Positions 3,154 to 27,750 are shown, numbered from the stretch's first letter. The stretch: 53,508 bases of DNA from Dehalococcoidia bacterium UBA6627 (GCA_002455955.1 DKLZ01000047.1:1-53508), one strand, 5' to 3'. Translations and numbers: made by a program. Notes: generated from the sequence alone by a model not told the origin.

Positions 3154-4028
3154 CAGGCACGCACTCCTACTAATTCGAGATATGCAGAAGCATCAGTCGG
3201 CTCATTTACGAAATGCTTCAGGTATTCCTCGAAGGACTCCGGCGTATTAGCAGCCTTCAGGTACTCCTCGAAATGTTCGAGATCGGGCTCATAATAGCCC
3301 GTGACTCCAAACGGGTGAGCGCCGTGAGGTACATGAACGACTGCATCCACATCGTGATAAAGAATCGAGGTTTCATCTGGCGTCGCACGAATTTCCTCGT
3401 TCGTCACGATTTCTTCAGCGGTTAGGATCACTCGCTTCGCACCGCGGACCATCGCAGGTGCTGAAAACGCAGCCATCACGTTGAGGTCATTCGTATCGCC
3501 CAGCTTAGCGTTGCCCTCCGGGTCGGATTTCGGTACATGGACGATCGCAACATCTGGAGTAATCGCTGTGATGGTAACCATTTCTTGTCCATCAACAGGT
3601 GATGTGAATTGATGCCATTCCGGATGATGCTGCAAATGATCATTCTGATAGCCGTGTAACGGGATGAATTGCACTCCCATACTCCCAGCCAGTAATCCCA
3701 ATGTCACCGAGAATTCACTTTCTTCTCTTGTAGTGATCGTACCTTCGATACTGGCCCGCCTGAAATTTGGAGGAACGGCCTGCCCGATAATTCTGAAAGC
3801 GAATGCCTGAACAGCCTTCAAGCAACCGGCCCCGATGAGTAAGTCGCCCTCCAGTCCCATGATTGGTGTGTACAGGTCGAGATCACGTTTTCTTTGGCGC
3901 ACAATTTCTCGTATCAATGCCATCGGTACCAGAGCCACCGGGCCTACAGATGGGGAGGCGATACCAACAGACGATCCGTCGGGAATAAGTTGGGTCGCTT
4001 CTTCGAGAGTCATCAGTTTCGCTGTCAT
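3153..4028 (-). CDS. family I CoA-transferase, subunit A (GctA-like)
   Basis: 291 aa. It begins MTLEEA..IPDGSS and contains LTAEEIVTNEEIR and VPHGAHP, collinear with glutaconate CoA-transferase subunit A as I recall it. Confidence 0.8.
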   Translation of the reverse strand: MTAKLMTLEEATQLIPDGSSVGIASPSVGPVALVPMALIREIVRQRKRDLDLYTPIMGLEGDLLIGAGCLKAVQAFAFRIIGQAVPPNFRRASIEGTITTREESEFSVTLGLLAGSMGVQFIPLHGYQNDHLQHHPEWHQFTSPVDGQEMVTITAITPDVAIVHVPKSDPEGNAKLGDTNDLNVMAAFSAPAMVRGAKRVILTAEEIVTNEEIRATPDETSILYHDVDAVVHVPHGAHPFGVTGYYEPDLEHFEEYLKAANTPESFEEYLKHFVNEPTDASAYLELVGVRA

Positions 4029-4279: not shown

Positions 4280-4336
4280 CTCTTCATCGTATTGCCAATA
4301 CCCGAGGATTCGCTGAATTTGAACGGGAGAGTTTCG

Positions 4337-5749
4337 ATGTCCACGAACCCAGACATCGCCCTGATGGCACATCTCATGCGTCGAGCAGGATTCGGAACAA
4401 ACCGAGAAGAGCTAGAACAGCTTACGGAACAAGGCTATGAAGAAACTGTCGAGCAACTTGTCGATCCACCGTCGTCAATTCCTGGCGCTGATCAATATGA
4501 GCTCTTCCGGTACATGCCATCACTAGAAACCGGAGGACCTAACCCTGTTCCCGGCGCGGCAAATTTGCTCTATCACATGGTGAACACGCAACGCCATCTC
4601 GAAGAAAAGATGGCGTTCTTTTGGCATCATGTCTTCGCCACTGGAAACTCGAAAGTCGACAACGATCAGAATCTGACGATTCAACTTGATATGTTCCGCG
4701 AGCATGGTATGGGCAACTATCGAGACTTACTGATTCGCCTTTCTCAGAGCCCTGCGATGATCTATTGGCTCGATAACAATGAGAACCACAAGCGATCACC
4801 CAATGAAAACTGGGGACGAGAACTCCTCGAATTATTCTCACTTGGTGTTGGGAATTACACTGAAACTGATGTGTTTGAATGCGCAAGGGCCTTCACCGGC
4901 TGGACCATCAATCCTAAGATCCCTCGAACTCCATACCATCGCTTCGCATGGTCTTATTCATTTAGGCCGGAAGAGCACGACTACAGTGAAAAAACCTTCC
5001 TAGGGCATGTCGGGAATTTTAACGGCGATGACATCATCGATATCATCCTTCAACAGCCAGCATGTTCACGGTTTATCGCCCGACACCTGTATAACTTCTT
5101 TGTTGCCGACGAAGCCCAGGTGCCGGCATGGGATATCGAGCCGCCACGCGATCCTGAAGCTATCGATTTACTGGCAGGCACGTTTGTTGACTCAGGTTAC
5201 GAACTTCGGCCAGTTTTGCGAGTCTTGTTTAACTCCGATTTCTTTAAGGAAGCCCGTTTTAAGAAAGTGCGCAGCCCTGTTGAAGTAGTGGTAGGTGCTC
5301 TACGTACTACAGGCGATCTGCAAGGCCCCGACCCCAGATTGGTCGCGATCGCTCAGGAACCATCTCATATGGGTCAGGCTCTTCATAACCCACCGAGTGT
5401 TGAAGGCTGGCAAACTGGCCGTGATTGGATCAACAGCGGATCAGTCGTAAAGCGAATCAACTTCGTGGCGGATCAGGTAAGTAACACGGAGTTACCAGGA
5501 GTTCAGAAACTTGTACAACGTGTCCTTGTTTCGAGCGACAACCAAATCAAAGAGGAAGATTTGGTCGATCGCTGTCTCGATTTGATGGGGCCACTTGAAA
5601 TTTCGGAGGAGACACGCCGCGAACTTATCGCCTACGTTGAGGCGGAAGGTCCGGTGAAGATCTCACCAGACAATGGTCACGATACGGAACAGCGGGTCGC
5701 GGATATGTTGGCGCTGATCGCTGCGACTCCGGAATATCAGTTCGGTTAG
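4337..5749 (+). CDS. DUF1800 domain-containing protein
   Basis: It contains LMRRAGFG, FWHHVFATG, YWLDNNEN and WGRELLELFSLGVGNYTE, which are DUF1800 hallmarks. Start set at ATG 4337 (GGGAGAG upstream); the track ORF starts at TTG 4292. Confidence 0.8.
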   Translation: MSTNPDIALMAHLMRRAGFGTNREELEQLTEQGYEETVEQLVDPPSSIPGADQYELFRYMPSLETGGPNPVPGAANLLYHMVNTQRHLEEKMAFFWHHVFATGNSKVDNDQNLTIQLDMFREHGMGNYRDLLIRLSQSPAMIYWLDNNENHKRSPNENWGRELLELFSLGVGNYTETDVFECARAFTGWTINPKIPRTPYHRFAWSYSFRPEEHDYSEKTFLGHVGNFNGDDIIDIILQQPACSRFIARHLYNFFVADEAQVPAWDIEPPRDPEAIDLLAGTFVDSGYELRPVLRVLFNSDFFKEARFKKVRSPVEVVVGALRTTGDLQGPDPRLVAIAQEPSHMGQALHNPPSVEGWQTGRDWINSGSVVKRINFVADQVSNTELPGVQKLVQRVLVSSDNQIKEEDLVDRCLDLMGPLEISEETRRELIAYVEAEGPVKISPDNGHDTEQRVADMLALIAATPEYQFG

Positions 5750-5788
5750 GAATAGCGGTTTTATCGTTGAACCGAAGGAGCATTTTGT

Positions 5789-6949
5789 ATGACAGCCATA
5801 ACCAAGCCACCAGTATTCGTAGTGCTTCAACTGACTGGAGGAAACGATTACCTCAATTCTGTTGTCCCTTACACCGACCCCTATTACTACGACAACCGCA
5901 AAGGAACTCTGCGAGTCGAAGCAGAAGATGTTCTGAAGCTAGACGCCGAATTCGGCCTGCACCCATGCATGAAGCCACTTCACGAAATTTACGAACGTGG
6001 TGACATGGCGATCATCCACGGTGTGGGGTATCCCAATTCACCAAGATCACATTTCCGATCGATGGATATCTGGCACACCTGTGAACCGGACACTGTCGGC
6101 ACCGAAGGTTGGGCAGCCCGTGCCATCCGTGAACTCGACCCTGAGGGAGAAAACCCTGTCACCGGTGTGAATATCGGTCAGGCCTTGCCCCGCGCCTTAG
6201 TACTGCCAGGAGTGTCGGTCGCTTCGGTAGCTGACCTCTCCAGCTATGGCCTACTCACCGGTATCGAAGTAGAAGAAAAACGCACTCGTTTATTGCAACG
6301 TTTTGCCAATATGTATGGAAAAGCAATCGGAACCGGCGCTGTAAATGACTACCTTGCTCGAACTGGACTCGATGCTCTCAGCGGAGCAGACATATTAAAA
6401 CGTGGATTAGCCAGCTACGAGTCAACAATCGAATACGGTACCGACGAAATCTCAAGAGCAATGCGAGACATTGCGACCATTCATACAGCGGATGTCGGCA
6501 CACGTGTTTTCTACACGCAGCTCATCGGCTTCGACACGCACGCAGCCCAACAACCTACTTTCGAACGCCTCTGGACTGAAGTATCCCGTGCCATCTCAGA
6601 CTTCTGGGATGATCTACGCGAACACGACGCTGACGACAATGTCGTCCTATTCCTATTTTCGGAATTCGGCCGGCGCGTACGAGATAACGGGTCAGGCACA
6701 GATCACGGAGCAGCAGGGGGCTGTTTTGTAATGGGACCATCAGTAGCCGGTGGAATGTACGGAACATACCCAGACAGGAAGCCGGAATCTCTGGATCAAG
6801 GAGACATGATCCCAAATCAAGATTTTCGTGGAGTCTATTCGACAATTCTCGAAGACTGGCTCCAGCTCGACTCCATCCCAATCGTGAATGGCCACTTTGA
6901 GAAACCTCGCTTTATCCAAAGTGCACCTACTGAATTAAGCAGTGTCTAA
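5789..6949 (+). CDS. DUF1501 domain-containing protein (sulfatase-fold)
   Basis: It contains LTGGNDYLN, SHFRSMDIW, FDTHA, FSEFGRR and GTDHG, which are DUF1501 hallmarks. It directly follows its usual DUF1800 partner. No twin-arginine leader is visible. Confidence 0.85.
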   Translation: MTAITKPPVFVVLQLTGGNDYLNSVVPYTDPYYYDNRKGTLRVEAEDVLKLDAEFGLHPCMKPLHEIYERGDMAIIHGVGYPNSPRSHFRSMDIWHTCEPDTVGTEGWAARAIRELDPEGENPVTGVNIGQALPRALVLPGVSVASVADLSSYGLLTGIEVEEKRTRLLQRFANMYGKAIGTGAVNDYLARTGLDALSGADILKRGLASYESTIEYGTDEISRAMRDIATIHTADVGTRVFYTQLIGFDTHAAQQPTFERLWTEVSRAISDFWDDLREHDADDNVVLFLFSEFGRRVRDNGSGTDHGAAGGCFVMGPSVAGGMYGTYPDRKPESLDQGDMIPNQDFRGVYSTILEDWLQLDSIPIVNGHFEKPRFIQSAPTELSSV

Positions 6950-10627: not shown

Positions 10628-12211
10628 CTACAAAGCGGCCAGCCAACGTTGTTTTCGACCCAGCATAGGTACGAGCTGCTCATAGGCATGATCAATCCAT
10701 TCGCTCAACATCGCTCGTGTGTCTCGTGGATCGATAATGTCTTCGATTTCGTAGGCTTCTGCGGCAGCAAACGGTGAACGCATCGCAACGAAACGTTCTT
10801 CGACTTGCCGACGTGCCTCATCAGGATCGTCACTTTCCTCAATTTCACGACGGTATGCTGCCTGAACCCCACCTTCGATAGGTAATGACCCCCACTCACC
10901 CGATGGCCATGCGACCCGAAAATTGAATCGTTCGTGATTTTGTTGACCGCCCCCTGCAACTCCATAAACTCGTCGAACTACGACAGACGCCCATGGAATC
11001 GTCGCCGAATATACTGCAGCAAGCCCGCGCAATCCTTGTTTCAATGTCCCTGATGCTTCAGCAGAACGCCCAATCATGAACCCAGGTTGATCCACGAAAT
11101 TCACGATCGGAAGATGAAATGTGTCACATAAATTGACAAATTTCTCCAATTTTTGTGCTGCATCGGCATCCATTGCGCCACCATGGACCAACGGATCGTT
11201 CGACAATATCCCAACCGGTCGACCACTGATACGAGCGAACATCGTGACTTGCGAACCACCGTAATAACGACCAATTTCGAAACTTGATCCACGATCGACT
11301 ATCAACTCGACAAGTTTTCGTGTGTCATACGGTTGATTTCGCTCACGGGGAATGATTGAGAGTAGTTCTTCTTCTCGCCGTCCTGCTGAATCATTTGTGA
11401 CCTGAGTTGGCGGCAATGTGAATACATTACTTGGCAGATATGACAAAAAGGTCCGGATGATTCGAAATGCATCAGCTTCGTCTTCAGCTTCGTTGTCGAC
11501 CAGCCCACTCCCACGCGCATGTACTCGGTAGCCCCCTAATTCTTCCTTATGGATGTTGTCACCCAATGCTCGCGACACGACTGGCGGACCAGCCGCGAAT
11601 ACCTGAGAGTTCTCTTTGATCATCACGGCAAAGTGGGCGCCGGCGATTTCAGCAGCAGGCAACCCGGCGACAGAGCCAAGTGCAGCAGAGACCACTGGGA
11701 CTTGGTTCATCATTTCGATCAACGTAGCCCATGTTTTATTTTGTGGGAGGTACGTTCTGCCACTACTAGCGATCTGGCGGATATCAGCGCCAAAACCATC
11801 AATCAGTCTGATCAGGGGCATCTTCATCCCAAGTGCCATTTCGTCGGCTTGACGTCCTTTGTTGCCTAGAGCGCCCTGAGTTGGAGTACCGGAATTAACA
11901 CCCTTGCCTCCACTCGTCGGTCGAACCGTGTAGTCCGAACCCTTCACTACCACCGAACGACCGTCGAGTTTTGCCAATCCAACCACAAGGGCATCTGAAC
12001 GGAAATCGGTCAGTTGTCCGTCTTCGTAACTACCGATTCCGGCTAATACCCCTCGCTCCCGAAAGCTACCGTCATCGACTAATTCATCAATCCGTTCACG
12101 AACAGTAAGTTTCCCATGTTCATGTTGCTGTCGGACTCGATCGTCGCCACCCATCCGATGAGCCAGATTGCGTCGCCGTTCTATTTCGTCGATTTCAGGT
12201 TGCCAGGTCAT
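10628..12211 (-). CDS. acyl-CoA carboxylase carboxyltransferase (beta) subunit
   Basis: Carboxyl-transferase domain pattern: GKLTVRERIDELVDDGSF and the paired N/C CT subdomains. Start set at ATG 12211 with AAGGA upstream; the track ORF extends to 12256. Confidence 0.85.
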   Translation of the reverse strand: MTWQPEIDEIERRRNLAHRMGGDDRVRQQHEHGKLTVRERIDELVDDGSFRERGVLAGIGSYEDGQLTDFRSDALVVGLAKLDGRSVVVKGSDYTVRPTSGGKGVNSGTPTQGALGNKGRQADEMALGMKMPLIRLIDGFGADIRQIASSGRTYLPQNKTWATLIEMMNQVPVVSAALGSVAGLPAAEIAGAHFAVMIKENSQVFAAGPPVVSRALGDNIHKEELGGYRVHARGSGLVDNEAEDEADAFRIIRTFLSYLPSNVFTLPPTQVTNDSAGRREEELLSIIPRERNQPYDTRKLVELIVDRGSSFEIGRYYGGSQVTMFARISGRPVGILSNDPLVHGGAMDADAAQKLEKFVNLCDTFHLPIVNFVDQPGFMIGRSAEASGTLKQGLRGLAAVYSATIPWASVVVRRVYGVAGGGQQNHERFNFRVAWPSGEWGSLPIEGGVQAAYRREIEESDDPDEARRQVEERFVAMRSPFAAAEAYEIEDIIDPRDTRAMLSEWIDHAYEQLVPMLGRKQRWLAAL

Positions 12212-12316
12212 ATCAGATCCTTCGCCATGTTCGCGTGGTCGATTCCACAATTCCAACTCGGATTTCGCGACAAAAATAATTTGCCGTTAATGAGCGTCAG
12301 ATAGAGAGGCCAGGAG

Positions 12317-13558
12317 TCACTCTGCATATGAGGTCAAGGCATCCAATGCTGGTTTGACCTCGCTCATAAACACTTCCAGATTACGAATGACGCTTTCCTT
12401 AGGTTGTTGCGCATAATGCACGATCAATGAGATGTACTCTGCCGGAAGAAGCTCCCACTGACGTACAAGCTTCTCTCTGACATCTTCGACCGAACCCCAT
12501 GCGTGAGTTTCGAGCCCTTCGAGTTGCTGCGCAAATTCTTCTAAAGATGCATCCACTGCCAACATTTTGGCTGGATTAGCCCCAGGGCGCGCCAATGCCA
12601 GTTGGTGATAAAAATTCCGTTGGATTTCAGCGTCGTATTTCCGCAGTGCCACACGAGCATGCTCACGAGTTTCACCGATCTGCAGCCATCGCGCCGTTGC
12701 CTGATTCTGCCCTAAGGCGAAATTGTGCCCCGCCTCATTCGCGGCTTGCTGATAAACGGAGCCATGTTCTTCTGCTTGTTCCACTCCTGAGAAGTAGATT
12801 GGGATAAATCCATTGCGAGCGGCAAATTCGATTGATTGCGCGCTTCCGGTTGTTGCAACAAAGATCGGAGGATGAGGTTTCGTATAAGGGGCCGGCACTA
12901 CCGAGACACGGCGGACTTTTCCATGCTCATCGAGCTCGTTAGGCGCGCCTAGACGTTTAGTTGTATCACTCATCCACCAATCGATACCGTCATCGTATGG
13001 GTAGGGGATCTGCCATGCTTTCGACTTACGTTCGATGGTCTCTTGAGTCCAAGACTCAATCACCATTTCGACATGCTCTTGAAACATCTCTCGGTTCGCG
13101 AGATCTGCCGAACCTCCATCCGATTGAGTCGCCACTGTTCCGAAATGCTGACCAATCACATTTGTCCAGCGATCCTGATAGCCACGAGCGAATCCAACGA
13201 AACACCGACCTTTCGAAAGATGATCAATGACAGCGACTTCTTCAGCTACGCGGATCGGGTTTTGCGTAGTCATTACGTAACCGAGTTGCCCGACACGTAT
13301 CTTTTTTGTGATTGCCGCCCAATAAGCGTCCATGATTCCCGGTGCCGGGCCTAATTCATAACCTTCTGAATGAAAATGATGCTCGATAGGTGCGACACCC
13401 CAGACGCCCAGATCGTCAGCTGCCATAACGATATCGTGAAGCCCATCGATAGCCTCTTGATAACGCTCAACATTCCTCCCGATCGGCCGAAGCATCTTCC
13501 GCTCATTTTCATCTTCTGCACGGATCATGGGGTAAACCTGCAAAATTACCTTTACCAT
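12317..13558 (-). CDS. LLM-class (luciferase-like) flavin/F420-dependent monooxygenase
   Basis: It contains EHHFHSEGYE and HLSKGRCFVGFARGY, which are typical of the bacterial luciferase-like family. Start at ATG 13558 with AAGGAG 6 nt upstream. Confidence 0.85.
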   Translation of the reverse strand: MVKVILQVYPMIRAEDENERKMLRPIGRNVERYQEAIDGLHDIVMAADDLGVWGVAPIEHHFHSEGYELGPAPGIMDAYWAAITKKIRVGQLGYVMTTQNPIRVAEEVAVIDHLSKGRCFVGFARGYQDRWTNVIGQHFGTVATQSDGGSADLANREMFQEHVEMVIESWTQETIERKSKAWQIPYPYDDGIDWWMSDTTKRLGAPNELDEHGKVRRVSVVPAPYTKPHPPIFVATTGSAQSIEFAARNGFIPIYFSGVEQAEEHGSVYQQAANEAGHNFALGQNQATARWLQIGETREHARVALRKYDAEIQRNFYHQLALARPGANPAKMLAVDASLEEFAQQLEGLETHAWGSVEDVREKLVRQWELLPAEYISLIVHYAQQPKESVIRNLEVFMSEVKPALDALTSYAE

Positions 13559-13766
13559 CCCCAACTCCTTAATCTGCAATCACTCCGTGAGATTTCGGAA
13601 CGTAAAGTAACTCCTCCTGTGGATTTACTCTTCATGAATCCGAAAGTCCACTCGAAAATTTCGATCGTTTGGTAACGTGCAAGAATCGCAACGGCTTTTG
13701 AACTGTAATGAGCAAATTACAGTTATCATCCCTGACAAGTTGACCTCTGCAGGCGGAGCACGATTT

Positions 13767-14804
13767 ATGACTACAACACGAGAGGCACGTAACCAACCAT
13801 TGGAGTTGGATGACGAAATGTCTGCAATCGCGTATTGCTATCAACAAGGTTGGACTGATGGTTTACCAGTCGTTCCACCCACGACCGCTCTAGTCGACGA
13901 AATGCTTGAAGCAAGTGGTGAGGACCCTGAATCGATTCTTGCTACGCATACGACAACAGGAAGACACTGCTCCGCTCATTCGGCCGCTGTAAATTCTGTG
14001 ATGGCTGGGTGCCTACCTGAATACTTTCCGATTGTCGCAGCAGCGCTCCGCGCTATGAGTCACAGGGAATACAACTATCACGGTTCGACAGCCAGTACAG
14101 GTGGAGCCGCTCCGTTGGTTATCGTTAGTGGGCCAATCGTTGATGCGATTGGCATGAACTCAGGTGTGAATACTTTCGGTTCCGGAAACCGACCAAATGC
14201 GACGATCGGCCGTGCAATTCGTCTCGTTCATCTGAACGTGTTCAAAATGGTTCCCGGTGTAACCGATCGATCAACGCAAGGCAATCCCGGCAAGTACAGC
14301 CTCTGCATAGCCGAAAACAGCCAGGCCAATCCATGGGCGTCGTTAGTAGAGGAATCCGGATTCCCGAGTGGTAGCTCTTGCGTGACTGTCTATGCAGCCA
14401 GTGCATTCCATAATATTGAAAACCATTACTCCTCAGAGGGAGATGGTGTACTAATGACAATTGCTGATTCGATGGCGAGTCTTGGTTCGTTAACTCACGG
14501 ACAGTCTGTCGTCGTACTTTCTCCTGAGCATGCCAGTATTGTGGCGCAAAACGGCCGCACGAAGCTACAAGTTCAAGAATTCCTCTTTGCTCATGCACAA
14601 CGCCCTATTGAAGAACTGCGTAAAGTCGGCAAAGGTGGTAAAGCAAAGGAAGAACAATTCCATCGTGGATTAAGCCCAGACGATATTCTGGTAACGGTTG
14701 CAGGTGGGGAAGCAGGTGGGCATTCAGCCTTCTTGCCATCATGGAGTCGAATGCGCGGCTCAGTCATGCAGACTGAAATAATCAAGCCGATTTCAAAAGA
14801 TTGA
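13767..14804 (+). CDS. uncharacterised conserved-looking protein (345 aa), first gene of the selenoprotein module
   Basis: A long ORF with GGAG 9-10 nt upstream of ATG 13767. It contains GWTDGLPVVPPT near the N-terminus. I cannot assign a family. Its stop is 13 nt before the next gene. Confidence 0.6.
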   Translation: MTTTREARNQPLELDDEMSAIAYCYQQGWTDGLPVVPPTTALVDEMLEASGEDPESILATHTTTGRHCSAHSAAVNSVMAGCLPEYFPIVAAALRAMSHREYNYHGSTASTGGAAPLVIVSGPIVDAIGMNSGVNTFGSGNRPNATIGRAIRLVHLNVFKMVPGVTDRSTQGNPGKYSLCIAENSQANPWASLVEESGFPSGSSCVTVYAASAFHNIENHYSSEGDGVLMTIADSMASLGSLTHGQSVVVLSPEHASIVAQNGRTKLQVQEFLFAHAQRPIEELRKVGKGGKAKEEQFHRGLSPDDILVTVAGGEAGGHSAFLPSWSRMRGSVMQTEIIKPISKD

Positions 14805-14817
14805 CCCGGAGGCGAAG

Positions 14818-15363
14818 ATGGCATTGCAGTTATATGACCCAACAATCGACGACATGAAGGCCCGTGATACCTCGGAAGCTCAACGGCTACCGAGCTTGGA
14901 GAACTGCACGATTGGCCTACTAACAAACGGTAAGGTGAATGCCGACATATTGTTACGAGAAGTAGGGTCTCTCTTCGAGCAACGCAATAATTGTCGTGTT
15001 CTTCTCGAAGAGAATAAGGGCAATGCGTCGCGACCTGCACCAGCAGAACTCCTCCAACAAATTGCTGCCGACGTTGACTTTATGGTGACGGCAGTCGGTG
15101 ACTGAGGAAGTTGCTCAACGTGCAGTGTGCACGATGGCATTTCATTCGAGCAGCTCGGTAAGCCCGCGCTGGTAATCTGTACACATCCTTTTACACCGAC
15201 CAGCCAAGCGACTGCGTCAACTCTCGGTATTCCTGACTATACGGTTGCCTTCGTCGATCATCCGATTGGAAGTTGCAGCCTAGATGGGTTACGCGAGCGA
15301 GCAGAGGATGTTTACCAGCAAGCATCGGCAATTTTACTCGGCAACTCAGCTACCCCCGAATAA
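14818..15363 (+). CDS. UGSC-motif selenoprotein candidate (181 aa, Sec at codon 96 encoded by TGA 15103-15105)
   Basis: Track ORFs 14818..15105 and 15127..15363 are in the same frame. They are separated only by one TGA and 7 sense codons. Read-through gives VTAVGD-U-GSCSTCSVHDG. GGAGG lies 5 nt upstream of ATG 14818, but there is no SD before GTG 15127. A hairpin follows the TGA. Confidence 0.7.
15107..15143 (+). promoter_or_regulatory. candidate bacterial SECIS stem-loop
   Basis: Perfect upper stem CGUGCA (15119-15124) / UGCACG (15128-15133) with apical loop GUG, starting 13 nt after the UGA. An imperfect lower stem spans 15107-15117 / 15135-15143. Confidence 0.5.
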
Positions 15364-15374
15364 CGGATCGGATA

Positions 15375-16304
15375 GTGACTGAAACTCCCGAATTCGAGCT
15401 CGCCATTATCGGTGGTGGCTTTACCGGATTAACGGCTGGACTGATAGCTGCTCGTGCAGGTCTCAATGTAAAATTGTTCGACAGGATGGGTCCTGGTGGA
15501 CAGTTGATCAACATCGATCGTGTCGATAATTATCCTGGGCTTCCCACTGGTATCGCTGGTTATGAGCTCGGACCTGCAGCGTTGGAACAAGCCCTCGATG
15601 CCGGAGTAAAAATCGACTATGGGGAAATCGACGGCCTTACATTCGACGGTGAACACTGGCAGCTCATCACCAACACAGGTGTAGTCACTGCCTACGCTGT
15701 CATCGTCGCAACTGGATCCGAACTCGCGAAACTCGGACTTGATGGTGAAGAAGAACTTCACGGATCCGGGATCTCCTATTGCGCAACATGCGATGCAGAA
15801 TTTTTCCGTGATCAAGACATCATGGTCGTAGGCGGTGGTGATTCTGGCCTCGATGAAGTGCTCGTTTTGGCACCTGTTGTGCGGTCAATCACACTTGTAA
15901 CACGTGGTGAGCTTGATGGCGCCGCAACCACGGTCAACGCGGTGAGAGCACTAGAAAACGTAACAATCCACTGCAACACAACTCTGACCGAACTGCACGG
16001 AACTGCACAATTGGAAGGTGTTTCCGTTATTCATCGTGAAAATGGCGAAACTGCACATCTCAAGGTGAGCGGCCTTTTCATTTACGTTGGCCTAAACGCC
16101 AATACTTCGCTGTTAGAAGGTCTTATACCTCTTGATACAGCTGGTCATGCTCAAGTAGATATCATGATGGCTACGGAACAACCTGGTCTTTTCGTTGCTG
16201 GTGACCTGCGAGCTGGATCGGTACGGCTTCTCGCCAGCTGTGCAGGCGATGGTGCAACAGCAGCCGTAGCAGCTGAAAGATATATCCGGTCAACTCTAGG
16301 CTAA
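15375..16304 (+). CDS. thioredoxin-disulfide reductase-like FAD-dependent oxidoreductase
   Basis: It has IIGGGFTGLTAG (FAD), the redox-active CATC in SYCATCDAEFF, VVGGGDSGLDE (NAD(P)H) and a C-terminal GLFVAGD motif. Start set at GTG 15375, 11 nt after the previous stop; the track ORF from 15273 overlaps the upstream gene. Confidence 0.85.
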   Translation: MTETPEFELAIIGGGFTGLTAGLIAARAGLNVKLFDRMGPGGQLINIDRVDNYPGLPTGIAGYELGPAALEQALDAGVKIDYGEIDGLTFDGEHWQLITNTGVVTAYAVIVATGSELAKLGLDGEEELHGSGISYCATCDAEFFRDQDIMVVGGGDSGLDEVLVLAPVVRSITLVTRGELDGAATTVNAVRALENVTIHCNTTLTELHGTAQLEGVSVIHRENGETAHLKVSGLFIYVGLNANTSLLEGLIPLDTAGHAQVDIMMATEQPGLFVAGDLRAGSVRLLASCAGDGATAAVAAERYIRSTLG

Positions 16305-16318
16305 GTATCTTTCCACTC

Positions 16319-17347
16319 TTATAGAGAAAACTCGGGAAAAAGGTATTCCTTAACTCGCTGCAGCAATTGAACAGCACGTTTATGATCTATGCCCGGTGGC
16401 ATACGAATAATGGTGCCATCGAGTGGAACCTCTTTCAGTCGTTGTTTAAAGAGATCAACAATCCGCTCTGGACCACCTACAAATATCTCCGAACCGTCAC
16501 GCATTTCTTCTGGGGTAGATGCCGGCTGAGCATATGGTTTCCGGCCGTCTGCTATTGCTGCTTCAGAAGCCCATTGGGCGTAATGCAAGTACGAATGGTA
16601 GAGATGTTCACGTGATTCCTCCCAGGCGCTCGCATCATCTTCTCCTAGCCAAAAGTCACGACTGTCGTACACAGGGATCGATTTAGGGTCACGATTGTTT
16701 CGCAACATCGCCGCTCTAAATGCTTCGTAGACATTTGATCCGCCGACCATATGGAATCCGTCAGCCAACCGGGCAACTCGCTCCAACGCTGTGTCACGCG
16801 TTGCTCCAATCCAGATTGGGGGGCCGCCATCTTGGAATGGTTTCGGTTCCACCCGTACCCCCTGAAGTTGGTATCGCTTACCGGTGAAGTCGAACTCGTG
16901 TTCATTCCAACCTCGACGGATAATTTCGATACCTTCCTCAATGAGTGAGGGTCGATAGCGACGATTGACCCCAAACGCTGGATATTCCTGCGGTCGATAT
17001 CCAACTGCGATTCCGAGAACGAAACGGCCTTCTGACATTATGTCTATAACTGCTGCGTCTTCAGCGATCCGTACTGGATGATGAAGCGGCAGCAGCATCA
17101 ATCTTGTGCCTATTGTGATTTTTGAGGTTCGATCAGCTGCTGCTGCTGCGACCGGAAGCACCGACGGACAATAGCCATCATCAGCACCATGATGTTCCGA
17201 TATCCAGACGCTATCGAACCCTAACTCTTCAGCGATGACGATCTGCTCCAGAGTTTCTTGATATACCTGAGGCCATGGCTTCTGCCATTGAGAAGGATTA
17301 CGTAGCGAAAAAAGGACGCCAAATTTTAGAGTCATCTTTGTACTCAT
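16319..17347 (-). CDS. LLM-class F420/flavin-dependent oxidoreductase
   Basis: It contains AEELGFDSVWISEHH and SEGRFVLGIAVGY, which are typical luciferase-like family motifs. Confidence 0.85.
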   Translation of the reverse strand: MSTKMTLKFGVLFSLRNPSQWQKPWPQVYQETLEQIVIAEELGFDSVWISEHHGADDGYCPSVLPVAAAAADRTSKITIGTRLMLLPLHHPVRIAEDAAVIDIMSEGRFVLGIAVGYRPQEYPAFGVNRRYRPSLIEEGIEIIRRGWNEHEFDFTGKRYQLQGVRVEPKPFQDGGPPIWIGATRDTALERVARLADGFHMVGGSNVYEAFRAAMLRNNRDPKSIPVYDSRDFWLGEDDASAWEESREHLYHSYLHYAQWASEAAIADGRKPYAQPASTPEEMRDGSEIFVGGPERIVDLFKQRLKEVPLDGTIIRMPPGIDHKRAVQLLQRVKEYLFPEFSL

Positions 17348-17374: not shown

Positions 17375-18484
17375 TCAGTGGCTACTGGCAGCCTCGCCAC
17401 TCACGCGATCAAACTGTTCCATCGCTTCTTCCACTAAACTGTACACAACCTCAGCAGCTGGTTTGATCTCGTGAATCCCTACGACAGCCTGACCAGCTGG
17501 TGTGGTCATCCAGTCTTCAAGACGTGCTTCACGAATACCTGCAAGAGTCTGATCCACTAGCATACCTTGCAAAGGCATCTGTAACGGTTCAGGGGAATCT
17601 GGCTGTTTCCATGCATCCGACCAGTTCGAGCGCAGCTGCCGAATCGGCTTACCGGACATGGCCCGCGACTGCACTGCGTCCTCGACTTTTGCTTCAATTA
17701 TTCGTTGCTTGAGAAACATCTCAGTTTCCGATTCATGAGTGGCGAGCCAAATAGTACCTGTCCAGATTCCATCCGCGCCCATAGCCAGTGATCCAGCAAG
17801 GTGCTTCCCATTCGAAACTCCACCTGCTGCTAACACGAGGGTGTCTGTTCCTTCTGCTATCTCAACGACCTCAGGAACGAGGGTAAAGGTTCCAACCGTC
17901 CCGCTATGGCCACCAGAGTCATAGCCTTGTGCAATGACTACATCTACCCCAGCTTCGACCTGCCGACGCGCTTGTCGCGGCAATCCAACAAGACCCCATA
18001 CTCGCGTGCCGACTGCATGAGCCTCTTCGATAATGAAAGCTGGACTTCCAAGGCCGGAAGCGAAGATTGGGACACGCTCTTCAAAGACTACTTCGAGTAA
18101 TTCACGTGCATCACGAAGTAAATTTGGAGATCCAGTACCACCGTCGTGGCGTGGTTTCCCTTCACTGATTCCGTTCTCTTTCCGAAGCCCTTCAAGGAAG
18201 TCTCGATGACCTTGAGGAATTAATTCTTCGAGATCTTCGCGGTTCCCCTCGACAAACGAAGCAGGCACGAGCAGATCAACTCCGAACGGTTTGTCACCAA
18301 CACGTTCCTTGATCCACCGGACATCCGATCGTAGTTCATCAGGAGTCCGCCCAACGCCTCCGAGAATGCCAATGCCACCAGCATTTGTGACGGCGACGAT
18401 TACATCTTTGGTGTGCGCAAACGCACATATTGGTACTTCACATCCGTACTCATCGCAAAGCCGTGTGTGCATAGGGTTTAACAT
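17375..18484 (-). CDS. nitronate monooxygenase (NMO / 2-nitropropane dioxygenase, FabK-like) family protein
   Basis: It contains VTNAGGIGILG and VIAQGYDSGGHSG, which are FMN TIM-barrel NMO hallmarks. Start set at ATG 18484 with GGAGAG 7 nt upstream; the track ORF extends to 18583. Confidence 0.85.
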   Translation of the reverse strand: MLNPMHTRLCDEYGCEVPICAFAHTKDVIVAVTNAGGIGILGGVGRTPDELRSDVRWIKERVGDKPFGVDLLVPASFVEGNREDLEELIPQGHRDFLEGLRKENGISEGKPRHDGGTGSPNLLRDARELLEVVFEERVPIFASGLGSPAFIIEEAHAVGTRVWGLVGLPRQARRQVEAGVDVVIAQGYDSGGHSGTVGTFTLVPEVVEIAEGTDTLVLAAGGVSNGKHLAGSLAMGADGIWTGTIWLATHESETEMFLKQRIIEAKVEDAVQSRAMSGKPIRQLRSNWSDAWKQPDSPEPLQMPLQGMLVDQTLAGIREARLEDWMTTPAGQAVVGIHEIKPAAEVVYSLVEEAMEQFDRVSGEAASSH

Positions 18485-18522
18485 TGATTGCTCTCCGATC
18501 ATGGTGCCCACTGATTGTAGAC

Positions 18523-18559
18523 TCTTGTTCACTCGTTCGCTGCGAACGAGTGAACAAGA
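18523..18559. repeat. 17-bp perfect inverted repeat (3-nt loop) between the carboxylase and NMO genes
   Basis: TCTTGTTCACTCGTTCG-CTG-CGAACGAGTGAACAAGA. On the + strand it is followed by TGTTTTTT; on the - strand there is no U-tract. Confidence 0.8.
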
Positions 18560-18586
18560 TGTTTTTTCGAACGAACGACACAAAAG

Positions 18587-21500
18587 CTACCAAGTGTCGA
18601 GGAATCGGTTACGCCCTCGTCGAATTGGATCAGGTGCCGGAGTAGATTTCAAACCTTGAATGATCCAGTAACGAGTTTCGGCAGGATCGATAACATCATC
18701 GATTTCAAATGTAGATGCCACGTTTATCGATCCTCCGCGTTCGTAGGCCTCGGCTAAGAGGCGTTCATACTCACTTGCACGTTCTTCGATATCATCGATT
18801 GCTGCTAACCGGTCACGGTTAGACAACTGAACGCTAGCTTCTTGATTCATGCCCCCATGCTCACCGGTCGGCCAAGCTACAGTGAACAGCGGAGCACGGC
18901 TGCTACCTGTTAGCTGTGCCATCGAGCCAAGTGCGTAACCCTTCCTCAAAATTACGGCGAAACGTGGAGTCTCCAGATTAGCGCCAGTTACAAAGAGCCT
19001 GGCACAGTGTCGGATCAGACCACTCTTCTCTACGTCTGGTCCCACCATCATGCCGGGTGTATCAACTAACGAAATGATCGGAATGTTCCAGGCGTCACAG
19101 AGTTGCCAGAACCGAGCCACTTTATCGGATCCATCACTATCAATTGCGCCACCGATGTACTCGTTATTGTTACATGTGAGACCGAAAGGACGCCCTTCGA
19201 TACGGACGAATGCCGTGATCATCCCGATACCAAATTCAGGACGAAGCTCAATTACGGAGTCTTTATCTGCGAGAATCTCGATCACTTCACGGACGTTAAA
19301 ACTCCTCATTCGATTTTCAGGGATTATGTGACGCAATTTCCTCTGATCGTGCATTTCCCAATCATCAACTCTGCCTTGGAAGTAAGAGAGTAGCTTCTTA
19401 CTGGTGTCGATCGCTTCACTGTGATCCTTAACAACGATGTCAACGGACCCGGCTGGGGCTAGATCGGACATTGCTCCGACTTCTTCCGGTAAAAACGCTC
19501 CCATGCCGCTACCTTCGATCACGGCAGGACCGCCCATTGCAATCAAGGCATCCTCTGTCGCAATGATGATGTCAGTACAGCCAAGAATTGCGGCATTACC
19601 TGCGTAACACCATCCTGCGGTCACTCCGATAATCGGCACTTTGCCACTCAGTTCAGCAAGTCGTGCCCACGTAGCACCAGTTCCACCGAAACCACGTGCT
19701 GGATCTCCATCACTATCTCCAGATCGCCCTCCAGCTCCTTCGGCATGAAAAATGACCGGAAGTGACATCTCGTTCGCGAGCTCCAGCATGCGATCTGTTT
19801 TCATATGACCGTGCCCACCCTGTGTTCCAGCGAACACAGTGTCGTCATATGAAATAAAAACGGTTCGAGCACGTTCTTCGTCAAATAGATCACCATTCAC
19901 ACTGCCGATCCCCATGACTAAACCATCGGCGGGTGTTTTCCAGATCAATTCATCAAGAGGTCTCTTGCGGCGTTGGCGGGCAATGACTAATCCGCCGTAC
20001 TCAACCCACGTGTCGGAATCGATCAGTTGTGAAATGTTCTCGCGTACGGTTTTGCGATTTCGACTATGCCGTCGCTCGACAGCCGCCGGTCGATTTTCAT
20101 CCAGTAGAAATTTACGACGGTCAAAGAGCGCTTGTAGATCAGGACGGATGTAATCCAAATCTACTTCAGGCGAGGATTCCGTGATCTCGCTGCCGACATC
20201 CATTTCTTCGATGAACGCCAACGGATGGTCTTCATACACAACGGTTCCGGTCGATACGGTCACCTGTCGAATTACTCCACCTTGCGGTGCGTAAACAAGG
20301 TGCTCCATTTTCAATGCGCTCATAACGAACAGTTGCTGTCCTTTCCGCACCGCATCTCCCTCTGAAATATTAATTTCAATCACTGTGCCTTGCAGGGGGG
20401 CAGTGATAGGGATCGTGTTTGGCGGCCCGATGACCGCAATTTGCGTTTCTCTTTCCGTGCGTGTCGCTTCGCCTGAACGGAAATATTCCAGAGATGCCAG
20501 TGGGTCACGCGCATCTAGGGAAGCACCGGCCTGACTGGTAGATTCACCGTCAGGTTGCCCTGTCCTTTCGGGATGTATTGCGAGCGCGCTGACTTTCTCA
20601 TCAATCCATCGCGTATGAACATGGCCTTTGTGGAAGTCTTCGTGTCTTAGCACATTCAGGAGGAACGGTATGTTCGTTTCGACGCCATCGATTTCGAATT
20701 CTTCCAGTGCTCGAGTCGTTCGTCGGATAACGTCTTGAAAATTATCGGATGTGGAATGGCCGATCACTTTAGCAATTAAAGAATCAAAATTAGGGTTCGT
20801 TGCGTATCCATGATATCCATAACTATCAATGCGAACTCCCGGACCTGACGGTGCTTCGAATGTATCCAGCGTGCCGCCAGTCGGGATTATTTGCCCATCG
20901 GTGTTAATCCGTTCGGTATTGACGCGAGCCTGAATCGCAAAGCCGCGTGGTCTCGGAATCTCAAATTGCTCCAGGCCAAGATCAGCAAGAGTTTCGCCAC
21001 CAGCCAAACGCAATTGGGCTTGTACTAAATCGATCCCTGTCACCTCTTCAGTAACCGTATGTTCAACTTGCAATCGAGCGTTCGCCTCAATGAAAGCGAA
21101 ATCACCATCGGAAGAATCGTCTACGAGAAACTCCACAGTACCGAGGCTTTGATAGTTCGCAGCTTTAGCTATCTTGATCGCTGCAGCTGCGATCGCTTCC
21201 CGTTGCGAGTCTGACAGGTACGGACTGGGAGCAATTTCTAATAGTTTTTGATGGCGTCGTTGCACACTGCATTCACGTTCTCCGAGGTGACTCAACGATC
21301 CTGTAGAGTCGCCAATTACTTGAATTTCAATATGGCGTGCACGCGGGATAAGACGTTCAACATAAACTCTGCCATCACCGAACGCCGCAGCAGCTTCTGA
21401 GCTGGCACGCTGGTACGCAGAAGCAACGTCTTTCGCATCAGTCACAAGGCGCATTCCGCGACCGCCACCACCGCTAATTGCCTTAATTAACATCGCGGGA

Positions 21501-21985
21501 CCGGCATTTGAATCTTTCCCATTGCTAGCGGTTGCCAGGCTCGTAAAAAACGATTCTGCTTCTTCAAGATTGACTGAACTAGTGCTTCCAGAGAGCACAG
21601 GAACTCCGGCGTGTTCAGCCAACGCACGTGCACGTGATTTATCGCCAAACACGTCGAGTGTTTCCGCAGTAGGACCGACAAAGGTCAATCCAGCTTCTGC
21701 ACATGCGGAGGCCAATGTCGCATTCTCTGAAAGGAATCCGTAACCAGGATGTACAGCATCACATCCCTGCTCAATAGCAGCAGTAATTATTCCTTCGACA
21801 TTCAAATAAGCTGGCGCACCTGTACCACTAAGCTGGTACGCATCATCTGCCTTTCTCACAGCAAGAGAATTCGCATCATCTTCGGAGAATGTCACCACAG
21901 TCGGGATTCCTAGGTCGGCAGCAGCGCGGATGATGCGCATCGCTATTTCACCACGGTTCGCCACCAACAGTTTCGATAAACTCAT
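18587..21985 (-). CDS. single-chain multidomain acyl-CoA carboxylase (biotin carboxylase + BCCP + carboxyltransferase)
   Basis: N-terminal LLVANRGEIAMRIIRAA biotin carboxylase ATP-grasp, a central biotinyl motif VMSALKMEH, and a C-terminal carboxyltransferase of about 510 aa. Start set at ATG 21985; the track ORF extends to 22057. Confidence 0.85.
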   Translation of the reverse strand: MSLSKLLVANRGEIAMRIIRAAADLGIPTVVTFSEDDANSLAVRKADDAYQLSGTGAPAYLNVEGIITAAIEQGCDAVHPGYGFLSENATLASACAEAGLTFVGPTAETLDVFGDKSRARALAEHAGVPVLSGSTSSVNLEEAESFFTSLATASNGKDSNAGPAMLIKAISGGGGRGMRLVTDAKDVASAYQRASSEAAAAFGDGRVYVERLIPRARHIEIQVIGDSTGSLSHLGERECSVQRRHQKLLEIAPSPYLSDSQREAIAAAAIKIAKAANYQSLGTVEFLVDDSSDGDFAFIEANARLQVEHTVTEEVTGIDLVQAQLRLAGGETLADLGLEQFEIPRPRGFAIQARVNTERINTDGQIIPTGGTLDTFEAPSGPGVRIDSYGYHGYATNPNFDSLIAKVIGHSTSDNFQDVIRRTTRALEEFEIDGVETNIPFLLNVLRHEDFHKGHVHTRWIDEKVSALAIHPERTGQPDGESTSQAGASLDARDPLASLEYFRSGEATRTERETQIAVIGPPNTIPITAPLQGTVIEINISEGDAVRKGQQLFVMSALKMEHLVYAPQGGVIRQVTVSTGTVVYEDHPLAFIEEMDVGSEITESSPEVDLDYIRPDLQALFDRRKFLLDENRPAAVERRHSRNRKTVRENISQLIDSDTWVEYGGLVIARQRRKRPLDELIWKTPADGLVMGIGSVNGDLFDEERARTVFISYDDTVFAGTQGGHGHMKTDRMLELANEMSLPVIFHAEGAGGRSGDSDGDPARGFGGTGATWARLAELSGKVPIIGVTAGWCYAGNAAILGCTDIIIATEDALIAMGGPAVIEGSGMGAFLPEEVGAMSDLAPAGSVDIVVKDHSEAIDTSKKLLSYFQGRVDDWEMHDQRKLRHIIPENRMRSFNVREVIEILADKDSVIELRPEFGIGMITAFVRIEGRPFGLTCNNNEYIGGAIDSDGSDKVARFWQLCDAWNIPIISLVDTPGMMVGPDVEKSGLIRHCARLFVTGANLETPRFAVILRKGYALGSMAQLTGSSRAPLFTVAWPTGEHGGMNQEASVQLSNRDRLAAIDDIEERASEYERLLAEAYERGGSINVASTFEIDDVIDPAETRYWIIQGLKSTPAPDPIRRGRNRFLDTW

Positions 21986-22121
21986 TGTCCTGCCTCTCTT
22001 AGAATGAGACCCATCATCCTGCTGCAGGGAGAGAATACGCGATGCTACTGCGCCCACCGTAATTCAATAGAGACACAGCGTAAGACTGACTATATAAGAA
22101 GAGGGTGAGATCGGAGCAATA

Positions 22122-26744: not shown

Positions 26745-26850
26745 CGAAACCCCCTCGAGTGATCACCTTTAGTCCGTCATACTTAGTATCGCGCACGTCA
26801 GTTCATCTGCAGAATGCCATAGACACAACGTGCTATCCGAGGAGGACACG

Positions 26851-27750
26851 ATGATTTCTGAGATCTTCGATCCCGAGCGCTGGCGTGAAATCGAAAACTT
26901 TAGTTTTACCGACATCACTTACCATCGTGCTATCGACCAAGGGACCGTTCGCGTCGCCTTTAACCGTCCTGAGGTACGTAATGCTTTCCGCCCTCACACG
27001 GTAGACGAGCTTTATGTCGCACTCGATCACGCGCGACAATCTACCGAGATCGGAACAGTCCTGCTCACCGGTAACGGACCATCAAGTCGCGATGGCGGAT
27101 GGGCTTTTTGCTCTGGTGGCGATCAACGCATACGCGGCAAGGACGGCTACAAGTACGCCGAAGGAGAAACAGCAGAAGCAATCGACCCTGCAAAGGTCGG
27201 CCGACTACACATCCTTGAGGTACAGCGTTTGATCCGCTTTATGCCGAAAGTTGTCATTGCTGTTGTGCCTGGTTGGGCGGCAGGAGGAGGGCATAGCTTG
27301 CACGTCGCGTGCGACCTAACGCTCGCTTCAAAAGAGCACGCAGTTTTCAAGCAAACTGACGCCGACGTAGCGAGTTTTGATGCTGGCTTCGGTAGTGCGT
27401 ATCTAGCGCGTCAAGTTGGACAAAAGCGAGCTCGTGAAATCTTCTTTCTCGGGCAGGATTACACAGCTGACGAAGCAGAACAATGGGGAGCAATCAACAA
27501 ATCAGTCCCTCATCAAGAATTGGAATCGATAGCACTCGACTGGGCATTAACGATCAATTCGAAAAGCCCTACCGCGCAGCGGATGCTGAAATTCGCCTTC
27601 AATTTGATCGATGATGGATTAGTGGGGCAACAAATATTCGCGGGTGAGGCAACGCGACTTGGTTATGCCACTGACGAAGCACAAGAAGGGCGAGAAGCCT
27701 TTCTTGAAAAGAGGCCCGTCGATTACTCTCGTTTCCCATATCATTTTTAG
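26851..27750 (+). CDS. menB: 1,4-dihydroxy-2-naphthoyl-CoA synthase
   Basis: The crotonase fold with VAFNRPEVRNAFRP, FCSGGDQ and YKY is characteristic of MenB. GAGGAGG lies upstream of ATG 26851. Confidence 0.9.
   Translation: MISEIFDPERWREIENFSFTDITYHRAIDQGTVRVAFNRPEVRNAFRPHTVDELYVALDHARQSTEIGTVLLTGNGPSSRDGGWAFCSGGDQRIRGKDGYKYAEGETAEAIDPAKVGRLHILEVQRLIRFMPKVVIAVVPGWAAGGGHSLHVACDLTLASKEHAVFKQTDADVASFDAGFGSAYLARQVGQKRAREIFFLGQDYTADEAEQWGAINKSVPHQELESIALDWALTINSKSPTAQRMLKFAFNLIDDGLVGQQIFAGEATRLGYATDEAQEGREAFLEKRPVDYSRFPYHF

Follow-up and report, generated by a model that had tools for sequence, protein, structure and literature searches.

In grd operons, the genes of the thioredoxin system are encoded beside the selenoproteins. 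A comparable combination, in which a selenoprotein gene is accompanied by a gene for a thioredoxin reductase (TrxR)-like flavoprotein, is described here from Dehalococcoidia bacterium UBA6627; the three-gene locus lies on a 53,508-nucleotide stretch of DNA (GCA_002455955.1, DKLZ01000047.1:1-53508), the whole of which was analysed and is called the window below. Its selenoprotein belongs to the UGSC family. The "UGSC-containing protein" was first noted as a selenoprotein without known function in Hyphomonas neptunium and ocean metagenomes (PMC1976440), and the family has been catalogued since 2007 (PMC1976440; PMC2398784) with no assigned function (PMC13188914). In the Global Ocean Sampling (GOS) metagenome survey, 255 UGSC genes encoding selenocysteine (Sec) were found in 37 samples, together with 21 cysteine (Cys) homologues, which makes UGSC proteins some of the most frequent selenoproteins of ocean metagenomes; in several non-marine samples of the survey, UGSC was the top selenoprotein family (PMC2398784). 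A 2026 review still lists UGSC among the selenoproteins with largely uncharacterised functions (PMC13188914).

Comparison across genomes and metagenomes indicates that the conserved core of this locus is the pair formed by the gene for a 345-aa protein (gene 1) and the UGSC gene (gene 2), not the trio, and that the reductase gene (gene 3) is a lineage-specific yet genuinely linked addition. The features of the module are as follows, with positions counted from the first letter of the window.

13752..13758, plus strand: Shine-Dalgarno (SD)-like element GGCGGAG, 9 nt 5' of the gene 1 ATG (read from the sequence)
13767..14804, plus strand: gene 1, open reading frame (ORF) of 345 aa
14808..14812, plus strand: SD-like element GGAGG, inside the 13-nt spacer ahead of gene 2 (read from the sequence)
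14818..15363, plus strand: gene 2, UGSC-family selenoprotein of 181 aa, with Sec96 in D-U-G-S-C-S-T-C (translation)
15103..15105, plus strand: in-frame UGA (TGA) read as the Sec codon, context VGD-U-GSCSTC (comparative data)
15107..15143, plus strand: selenocysteine insertion sequence (SECIS)-like hairpin, core stem CGUGCA/UGCACG with GUG loop at 15119-15133 (fold)
15375..16304, plus strand: gene 3, low-molecular-mass TrxR-like flavoprotein of 309 aa, GTG start (translation)
15411-15428, plus strand: FAD motif GGGFTG of gene 3 (translation)
15780-15791, plus strand: redox centre CATC of gene 3 (translation)
15831-15848, plus strand: GGGDSG motif of gene 3 (translation)

The spacers measure 13 nt between genes 1 and 2 and 11 nt between the gene 2 stop and gene 3, and the GTG at 15375 is supported as the start of gene 3 by close homologues that start at the same position. 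A renewed reading of the sequence agrees with the initial annotation on the three genes and their spacers, the in-frame UGA, the CATC centre and both dinucleotide motifs.

The association of gene 1 with UGSC was assessed in a genome sample of 80 gene 1 loci, in which pairing was counted when a UGSC gene lay within 1 kb of gene 1. A UGSC gene adjoins gene 1 in 76 of these loci, which come from Pseudomonadota, Chloroflexota, Actinomycetota, Methylomirabilota, Acidobacteriota and others; at one of the four unpaired loci, the sequence ends 123 bp past gene 1. Other neighbours are not conserved, the next commonest gene cluster being present in 12 of 86 loci. The initial annotation had proposed a functional module of three genes, which is borne out, as the pair is found almost everywhere and the window's clade keeps the trio despite varied order and flanks. 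The synteny implied for the trio is likewise conserved in that clade, but the reductase is absent at 80 of the 80 sampled genome loci, leaving the pair as the core. Given the adjacency of genes 1 and 2 in 76 of 80 unrelated genome loci and the recurrence of the trio with different outer flanks, the three-gene arrangement is beyond chance on comparative grounds. The pair also occurs with Cys in cultured Actinobacteria, where UGSC comes first and gene 1 second, and it is present in a haloarchaeon; Haladaptatus (L183) has gene 1 and no UGSC gene within 6 kb. On the 1.46-Mb replicon pFER4 of Paracoccus ferrooxidans (L182:6408-8065, 11380-13155), about 3.3 kb separate selB from a UGSC-gene 1 pair of the Sec form, and genes for DsrE, TusA and a cysteine desulfurase are found upstream. 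Two gene 1 copies each are present at loci L058, L067, L070 and L075, with a second UGSC gene at L058 and L075, and proteins of about 710 aa in which two gene 1 units are fused in tandem also exist (P0319, P0327).

The two proteins are also found as a single polypeptide. For example, a UGSC-like domain at the N-terminus is joined to a gene 1 domain at the C-terminus in a 561-aa protein of Vibrio europaeus pVEu (L179:6368-8053) and a 574-aa protein of Sporomusa termitida pSPTER (L181:6305-8029), and a UGSC-gene 1 fusion from Neorhizobium carries a CSTC motif. Many such fusions, 516-586 aa long, are contained in the representative library. Shorter library entries, of about 420-450 aa, start right after the motif, as expected when a gene caller processes a Sec-containing fusion. 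A "UGSC/Unknown_1 fusion" mentioned in a 2008 report is probably a UGSC-gene 1 fusion. Near-universal adjacency and fusion into one polypeptide in many organisms thus provide comparative evidence showing that gene 1 and UGSC work as one enzyme.

With regard to gene 2, membership in the catalogued UGSC family is indicated by both profile databases: the protein scores 138.1 bits against NF041046 ("UGSC family (seleno)protein"; NCBIfam cutoff 125) and 170.6 bits against PF24696 (Pfam cutoff 25), passing in each case. The suggestion of an undescribed Sec system therefore has to be withdrawn for the selenoprotein itself (NF041046, PF24696; PMC1976440; PMC2398784). Residues G94, D95, C/U96, G97, S98, C99 and S100 are invariant in 32 aligned UGSC members. 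The label UxxCxxC given at first describes the window's gene 2 correctly but does not hold family-wide; as a family feature it was rejected, the third Cys being missing in distant clades and at some TrxR-linked loci, and only U/C-G-S-C is conserved. In the Arthrobacter sp. ERGS1:01 UGSC protein (L176:8033-8848), the C-terminus carries an additional NifU-like domain containing a CxxC (27.2 bits in Pfam, gathering score 27), and protein P0340 has a CxxC-containing N-terminal extension before its gene 1 domain that resembles, by eye, the Arthrobacter NifU-like domain.

The Sec reading of the UGA was examined against the explanation that the TGA at 15103 terminates translation or arose through faulty sequencing, in which case gene 2 would be two small genes or a pseudogene. 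In all metagenome records, gene callers do cut gene 2 in two, leaving pieces of about 96 and 80 aa. However, a TGA occupies the same column in all aligned homologues: it is found at the Sec column in every tblastn-aligned UGSC gene of the 76 gene 1-adjacent genome loci, and 90 such sites, with 86 distinct flanking sequences, were collected over all loci fetched. Strong in-frame conservation persists downstream of the TGA, and the full-length Cys homologues of cultured Actinobacteria are colinear with gene 2 across it. Moreover, a GU-loop hairpin follows the codon. Among 81 distinct homologous sequences, pairing in the 6-bp stem of its SECIS-like core, 16-30 nt downstream of the UGA, reaches 99% or more, and 80 of the 81 share the loop GU. 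Compensatory changes are found at pair 18:28 (TA 63, GT 11, AT 5, GC 1) and at pair 20:26 (CG 79, GC 2), and the pairing value is 0.86, compared with 0.13-0.52 in slid controls. By the comparative data, then, the hairpin 3' of the UGA is conserved and covarying, and the Sec reading is sound, based on the shared TGA column, the colinear Cys homologues and the hairpin; a genuine stop codon at 15103 is effectively excluded, its probability being vanishingly small.

For structural comparison, a Cys homologue 42% identical to gene 2 stood in for it; its predicted model (predicted local distance difference test, pLDDT, 90) has a flavodoxin-like three-layer alpha/beta fold with the Cys/Sec position at a helix N-terminus, and no specific match to this model was found in the PDB. 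The thioredoxin fold assumed for UGSC in the literature was accordingly rejected, the homologue model being flavodoxin-like. A different relationship emerged from an NCBIfam scan of 32 UGSC proteins, in which GrdB was matched by 21, GrdF by 16, TIGR01918 by 14 and PrdB by 13 (best E 8e-5). These matches to selenoprotein B families are always centred on the Sec site, with about 75 residues aligned, and are read as remote homology, not membership.

Gene 1 represents a large unannotated family. Neither gene 1 nor 29 of its homologues matches any Pfam or NCBIfam model, even at E up to 10, and a PDB sequence search with gene 1 gave no match; the 345-aa protein, whose family had not been recognised in the initial annotation, belongs to no characterised pathway according to these searches. 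Its homologues form more than 6,400 clusters at 90% identity, every one named "hypothetical", and a profile search returned 6,383 representatives when clustered at 50% identity, with E <=1e-30 for 1,661. The conserved motifs are GWTDGLPVVPP, AGC(82), GNRxNATIGRAxRL, STQGxPGK and SPEH, and many Arg, Asn, Asp, Glu and His residues are invariant. Across 95 diverse homologues, C82 is the sole near-universal Cys (93/95), followed by C180 (84/95) and C24 (75/95). An AlphaFold2 model of gene 1 (pLDDT 81; predicted template modelling score, pTM, 0.85) matches known folds only weakly, the best Foldseek match being a class I fumarate hydratase (E 7e-5, probability 0.96, template modelling score, TM, 0.27). 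Membership in the Fe-S hydro-lyases was rejected in view of TM-scores of 0.25-0.32 to these enzymes and one conserved Cys only; with a single near-universal Cys, gene 1 lacks the three-Cys Fe-S site of class I fumarate hydratases. Many gene 1 proteins of Gammaproteobacteria, Chloroflexota and some Alphaproteobacteria (e.g., L001, L003, L005, L008-L014) end in a conserved GVCxDC tail, which is missing from the window's clade. This tail could be a redox shuttle. The idea that the tail and an adjacent TrxR are mutually exclusive was rejected, as absence of the tail does not correlate cleanly with presence of a TrxR gene; Reyranella and other alphaproteobacterial loci have neither.

Some fusions carry no redox pair, the Sec/Cys motif being replaced (e.g., by GDMGTS) in the Vibrio and Sporomusa proteins and in P0352, P0381, P0424 and P0438. 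The Vibrio and Sporomusa fusions adjoin genes for aconitase X and DUF126, i.e., the large and small AcnX subunits, and there is no trxB nearby; such motif-less fusions suggest a non-redox branch of the family. From this perspective, the gene 1 protein might catalyse a non-redox reaction on a carboxylic acid, for instance as an isomerase or hydro-lyase, with UGSC in a structural, regulatory or protective role and the reductase keeping its Sec/Cys reduced in an aerobic cell. The motif-less fusions retain Cys82, those inspected adjoin aconitase X and DUF126 dehydratases, AcnX lies beside the pair in Microbacterium, and the best, albeit weak, fold matches of gene 1 are the Fe-S hydro-lyases mentioned above. 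Yet the Sec codon is present in all aligned unfused UGSC genes of the genome loci, and the GOS ratio of 255 Sec to 21 Cys forms (PMC2398784) reflects a preference that fits a catalytic residue better than a structural one. That at least five lineages have recruited trxB into the operon or next to it further suggests a stoichiometric demand for electrons, and the single near-universal Cys of gene 1 leaves no three-Cys Fe-S site. Thus, the motif-less fusions keep a non-redox role alive, but Sec dominance and repeated trxB recruitment argue against it for the motif-bearing forms, and as an account of the locus it is judged quite unlikely.

The third gene encodes a bona fide low-molecular-mass TrxR homologue with an intact CATC centre, whose best PDB relatives are all TrxRs and whose nearest named relatives come from Dehalococcoidia, SAR202 and Chloroflexi metagenome-assembled genomes, pointing to a marine Chloroflexota as the probable source of the window. 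Nevertheless, it departs from TrxB in two respects. Against TIGR01292, gene 3 scores 263.5 bits, below the equivalog cutoff of 343.45; other members of its subclade score 276-302 bits, as opposed to 346-349 bits for Dehalococcoidia/Chloroflexi TrxBs that do not adjoin the pair. In addition, gene 3 has VTRGELDGA (subclade VTRG-ELxGA) where HRRxxxR is expected (HRRDxFRA in canonical relatives), whereas GGGFTG, CATC and GGGDSG are invariant within the subclade. The HRRxxxR motif binds the 2'-phosphate of NADPH. Its loss therefore suggests an altered nucleotide preference, possibly for NADH. With 263 bits against a cutoff of 343 and no HRRxxxR, gene 3 is, as judged from its sequence, a divergent paralogue and not a typical housekeeping TrxB.

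The possibility that gene 3 is nonetheless an ordinary housekeeping thioredoxin reductase lying beside the pair by chance was weighed against its genomic context. In the window's clade, a TrxR-like gene adjoins the pair at every locus retrieved for five gene 1 relatives (58-80% identity): it lies downstream of the pair in L081, L083/L094, L086 and L088 and upstream in L085, and the outer flanks are entirely different among these loci. A reductase relative at 58% identity precedes UGSC and two gene 1-sized genes without a Pfam match that are candidate gene 1 homologues, and one at 53% (L174:2995-7727) has a gene 1/UGSC(Sec) pair on each side, both on the strand opposite the reductase. Adjacency is thus seen in every checkable relative of at least 53% identity, in four gene arrangements and with unrelated flanks, and the pair is missing near a relative at 49%. 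When metagenomes were scanned with a profile of the reductase subclade, the matches listed included one extra trio and 79 generic TrxR loci without the pair, the latter serving as a negative control for the linkage. Gene 3 is, furthermore, 80 bits under the TIGR01292 cutoff, which other Chloroflexota TrxBs pass, and plasmid-borne extra trxB copies are tied to the pair in other phyla. Although CATC and the overall homology are those expected of a housekeeping enzyme, chance adjacency is largely refuted by these comparisons and is regarded as very improbable.

Further trxB copies beside the pair were found on replicons of cultured bacteria. The gene order is trxB-trxA-gene 1-UGSC in Arthrobacter sp. 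ERGS1:01, gene 1-UGSC-trxB in Roseovarius sp. THAF8 and trxB-tctC-SDR-gene 1-UGSC in Variovorax sp. SRS16 (SDR, short-chain dehydrogenase/reductase); in Neorhizobium galegae, the UGSC-gene 1 fusion is followed by an unannotated TrxR-like ORF. The U/CxxC motif is kept at every trxB-linked locus with readable UGSC sequence, and the trxB-linked Neorhizobium fusion keeps its CxxC with Ala at position 82. These copies in four further lineages support a flow of electrons from thioredoxin reductase to the pair, and the supply by NAD(P)H and a TrxB-like enzyme that had been proposed initially gains support from them as well. Direct reduction of UGSC without thioredoxin, as also proposed, is not established, since Arthrobacter has trxA between trxB and the pair. 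There, trxA speaks for a thioredoxin intermediate; trxA is missing from the window, and the reported lack of a thioredoxin gene was reproduced in that no WCGPC/CGPC ORF of the thioredoxin type occurs across all 53.5 kb.

On balance, the operon probably encodes a two-subunit Sec/Cys-dependent reductase, consisting of gene 1 and UGSC, that is recharged by NAD(P)H via the TrxR-like enzyme. Based on synteny and fusions, the two proteins would form one enzyme. Its redox centre would be Sec96-x-x-Cys99 of UGSC, predicted to lie at the helix N-terminus of the flavodoxin-like domain; this assignment draws on the motif, the Sec preference and the homology to selenoprotein B. Gene 1 would supply the substrate pocket, to which its invariant Arg, Asn, Asp, Glu and His residues and the near-universal Cys82 may contribute. 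The Sec/Cys pair would give two electrons to the substrate bound by gene 1 and end as a selenenylsulfide, and the TrxR-like flavoprotein would then pass electrons from NAD(P)H through FAD and the CATC dithiol to the selenenylsulfide, either directly or via the cell's thioredoxin. This return of electrons is suggested by the operon linkage in at least five lineages. The module is accordingly classed as a putative thioredoxin-system-dependent Sec/Cys oxidoreductase.

Several observations weigh against this proposal. No gene 3 homologue lies within 6 kb at any of the 80 sampled genome loci, so that most organisms must use a general reductant, unless the enzyme does not consume reducing equivalents stoichiometrically. 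The fused members without the Sec/Cys motif imply that catalysis of the gene 1 type does not always need the redox pair, and trxA in the Arthrobacter operon speaks against direct transfer from TrxR to UGSC as a general rule. With respect to selenoprotein B, the match to TIGR01917 reaches 15.9 bits, far below the cutoff of 602, and gene 1 is unrelated in sequence to GrdE and PrdA, which are self-cleaving pyruvoyl proproteins, and has no match to Pfam Gly_reductase.

The roles within the proposed enzyme could also be reversed, with UGSC as a mere thioredoxin-like carrier and electrons passing from the TrxR-like enzyme through UGSC to gene 1, which would be the true reductase acting via Cys82. 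Such a role for UGSC has been assumed in the literature (PMC2398784), U-G-S-C at a helix N-terminus resembles the C-G-P-C of thioredoxin, low-molecular-mass TrxRs normally reduce small CxxC carrier proteins, and Cys82 is near-universal (93/95). However, the predicted fold is flavodoxin-like, not that of thioredoxin, and the remote homology of UGSC is to the catalytic selenoprotein B, not to carriers. A true trxA is already present in the Arthrobacter operon and would make a second carrier redundant, and the trxB-linked Neorhizobium fusion has retained its CxxC but has Ala at position 82. Considering the fold, the Arthrobacter trxA and this C82A variant, a pure carrier function is less likely than a single enzyme formed by both proteins, and it is thought rather unlikely overall.

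The genes around the pair offer clues to its substrate. Recurrent neighbours include genes for CoA-transferase III (CoA, coenzyme A), acyl-CoA dehydrogenase, enoyl-CoA hydratase, luciferase-like monooxygenases and SDRs, together with DUF6282, ComA, AcnX, LysR/IclR regulators and TRAP/TTT/ABC/MFS transporters. In Actinobacteria, genes of the LigAB/RraA/IlvD type are found beside the pair, and in Microbacterium AcnX adjoins it. Genes for DUF6282 lie beside gene 1 in the haloarchaea Natrinema (L178) and Haladaptatus (L183) and in a member of the window's clade (L088), and a ComA-type phosphosulfolactate synthase is encoded near the pair in Arthrobacter (L176) and near gene 1 in Natrinema (L178); both could be informative about the substrate. 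Collectively, the neighbouring genes suggest the catabolism of small carboxylic acids or CoA esters.

The window itself contains many CoA-transferases, an enoyl-CoA hydratase, carboxylases and MFS transporters. Annotated genes outside the module include the following.

487-1737: CoA-transferase III
2356-4028: two CoA_trans subunits
12317..13579, minus strand: luciferase-like monooxygenase (Pfam)
16319..17347, minus strand: luciferase-like monooxygenase (Pfam)
17375..18583, minus strand: nitronate-monooxygenase-family gene (Pfam)
26830-27750: enoyl-CoA hydratase

The luciferase-like monooxygenase flanks and the nitronate monooxygenase gene had been recognised before and agree with Pfam. Adjoining the latter, a single 1,156-aa chain encoded at 18587-22057 on the minus strand combines biotin carboxylase, biotinyl carrier and carboxyltransferase, and a separate 542-aa carboxyltransferase is encoded upstream of the module at 10628-12256, also on the minus strand. 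A DUF1800/DUF1501 gene pair lies at 4292-6949 on the plus strand amid the mainly CoA-ester catabolic genes of the window. An Rfam scan of the window returned tRNAs only, and a scan for promoter and terminator consensus sequences gave nothing useful for this organism.

Taken as a whole, the initial annotation is largely supported and needs correction in the name of the selenoprotein family, the core being a pair and not a trio, and the unproven direct reduction. In the literature searched, no description was found of the near-universal partner enzyme of UGSC, of UGSC-gene 1 fusions as evidence of a complex, or of either the tie between UGSC and selenoprotein B or a recurrent dedicated thioredoxin reductase. 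The UGSC family thereby gains a near-universal partner from a very large family without a Pfam or NCBIfam model. Rosetta-stone fusions argue for physical association of the two proteins, and the recurrent genetic link to thioredoxin reductase names a likely electron source for them. Moreover, Sec-free (Cys-form) systems occur in the cultured Roseovarius sp. THAF8, Arthrobacter sp. ERGS1:01, Variovorax sp. SRS16 and Microbacterium, making the function approachable without selenoprotein expression.

Three known systems bear comparison with the module. Gene 3 is like low-molecular-mass TrxB (TIGR01292) and the C-terminal module of AhpF in its two-domain architecture, its FAD and NAD(P)H glycine motifs and its CATC centre; unlike TrxB, it falls below the equivalog cutoff, lacks HRRxxxR and is linked genetically to a partner other than thioredoxin, trxA being absent from the window. 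The class I (Fe-S) fumarate hydratases and aconitase-X-type hydro-lyases provide the best fold matches of gene 1, and AcnX genes adjoin some family members; gene 1 differs from them in having no sequence similarity, TM-scores of only 0.25-0.32 and one conserved Cys.

A further parallel is offered by the selenoprotein B subunits of the Stickland reductases for glycine, sarcosine, betaine and D-proline (GrdB, GrdF and GrdH with GrdE; PrdB with PrdA). In glycine reductase, TrxB and TrxA serve to recharge the selenoprotein. Both selenoprotein B and UGSC have Sec in U-x-x-C(-x-x-C), and each works with a second, larger subunit and has thioredoxin-system genes alongside. On the other hand, UGSC is only about 180 aa long and scores far under the cutoffs of the selenoprotein B families (TIGR01917, TIGR01918, TIGR04483), and it occurs mostly in aerobic heterotrophs of water and soil rather than in anaerobes that ferment amino acids. 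Genes for GrdA, GrdC/D and PrdC-E were found neither among the annotated neighbours in the window nor among the recurrent neighbours of the 86 loci. It is a matter of speculation, by analogy with GrdE and PrdA, that the near-universal Gly81-Cys82 of gene 1 might give rise to a carbonyl cofactor. A bolder and, at present, unlikely reading is that gene 1 and UGSC constitute a thioredoxin-driven counterpart of the Stickland reductases in mainly aerobic heterotrophs, widespread in ocean and soil bacteria, in which an enzyme with a new catalytic fold (gene 1) would cleave, by Sec-dependent reduction, a bond of some abundant osmolyte or small organic acid. If true, this Stickland-like reading would assign a role to a selenoprotein family that ranks among the most abundant in the sea.

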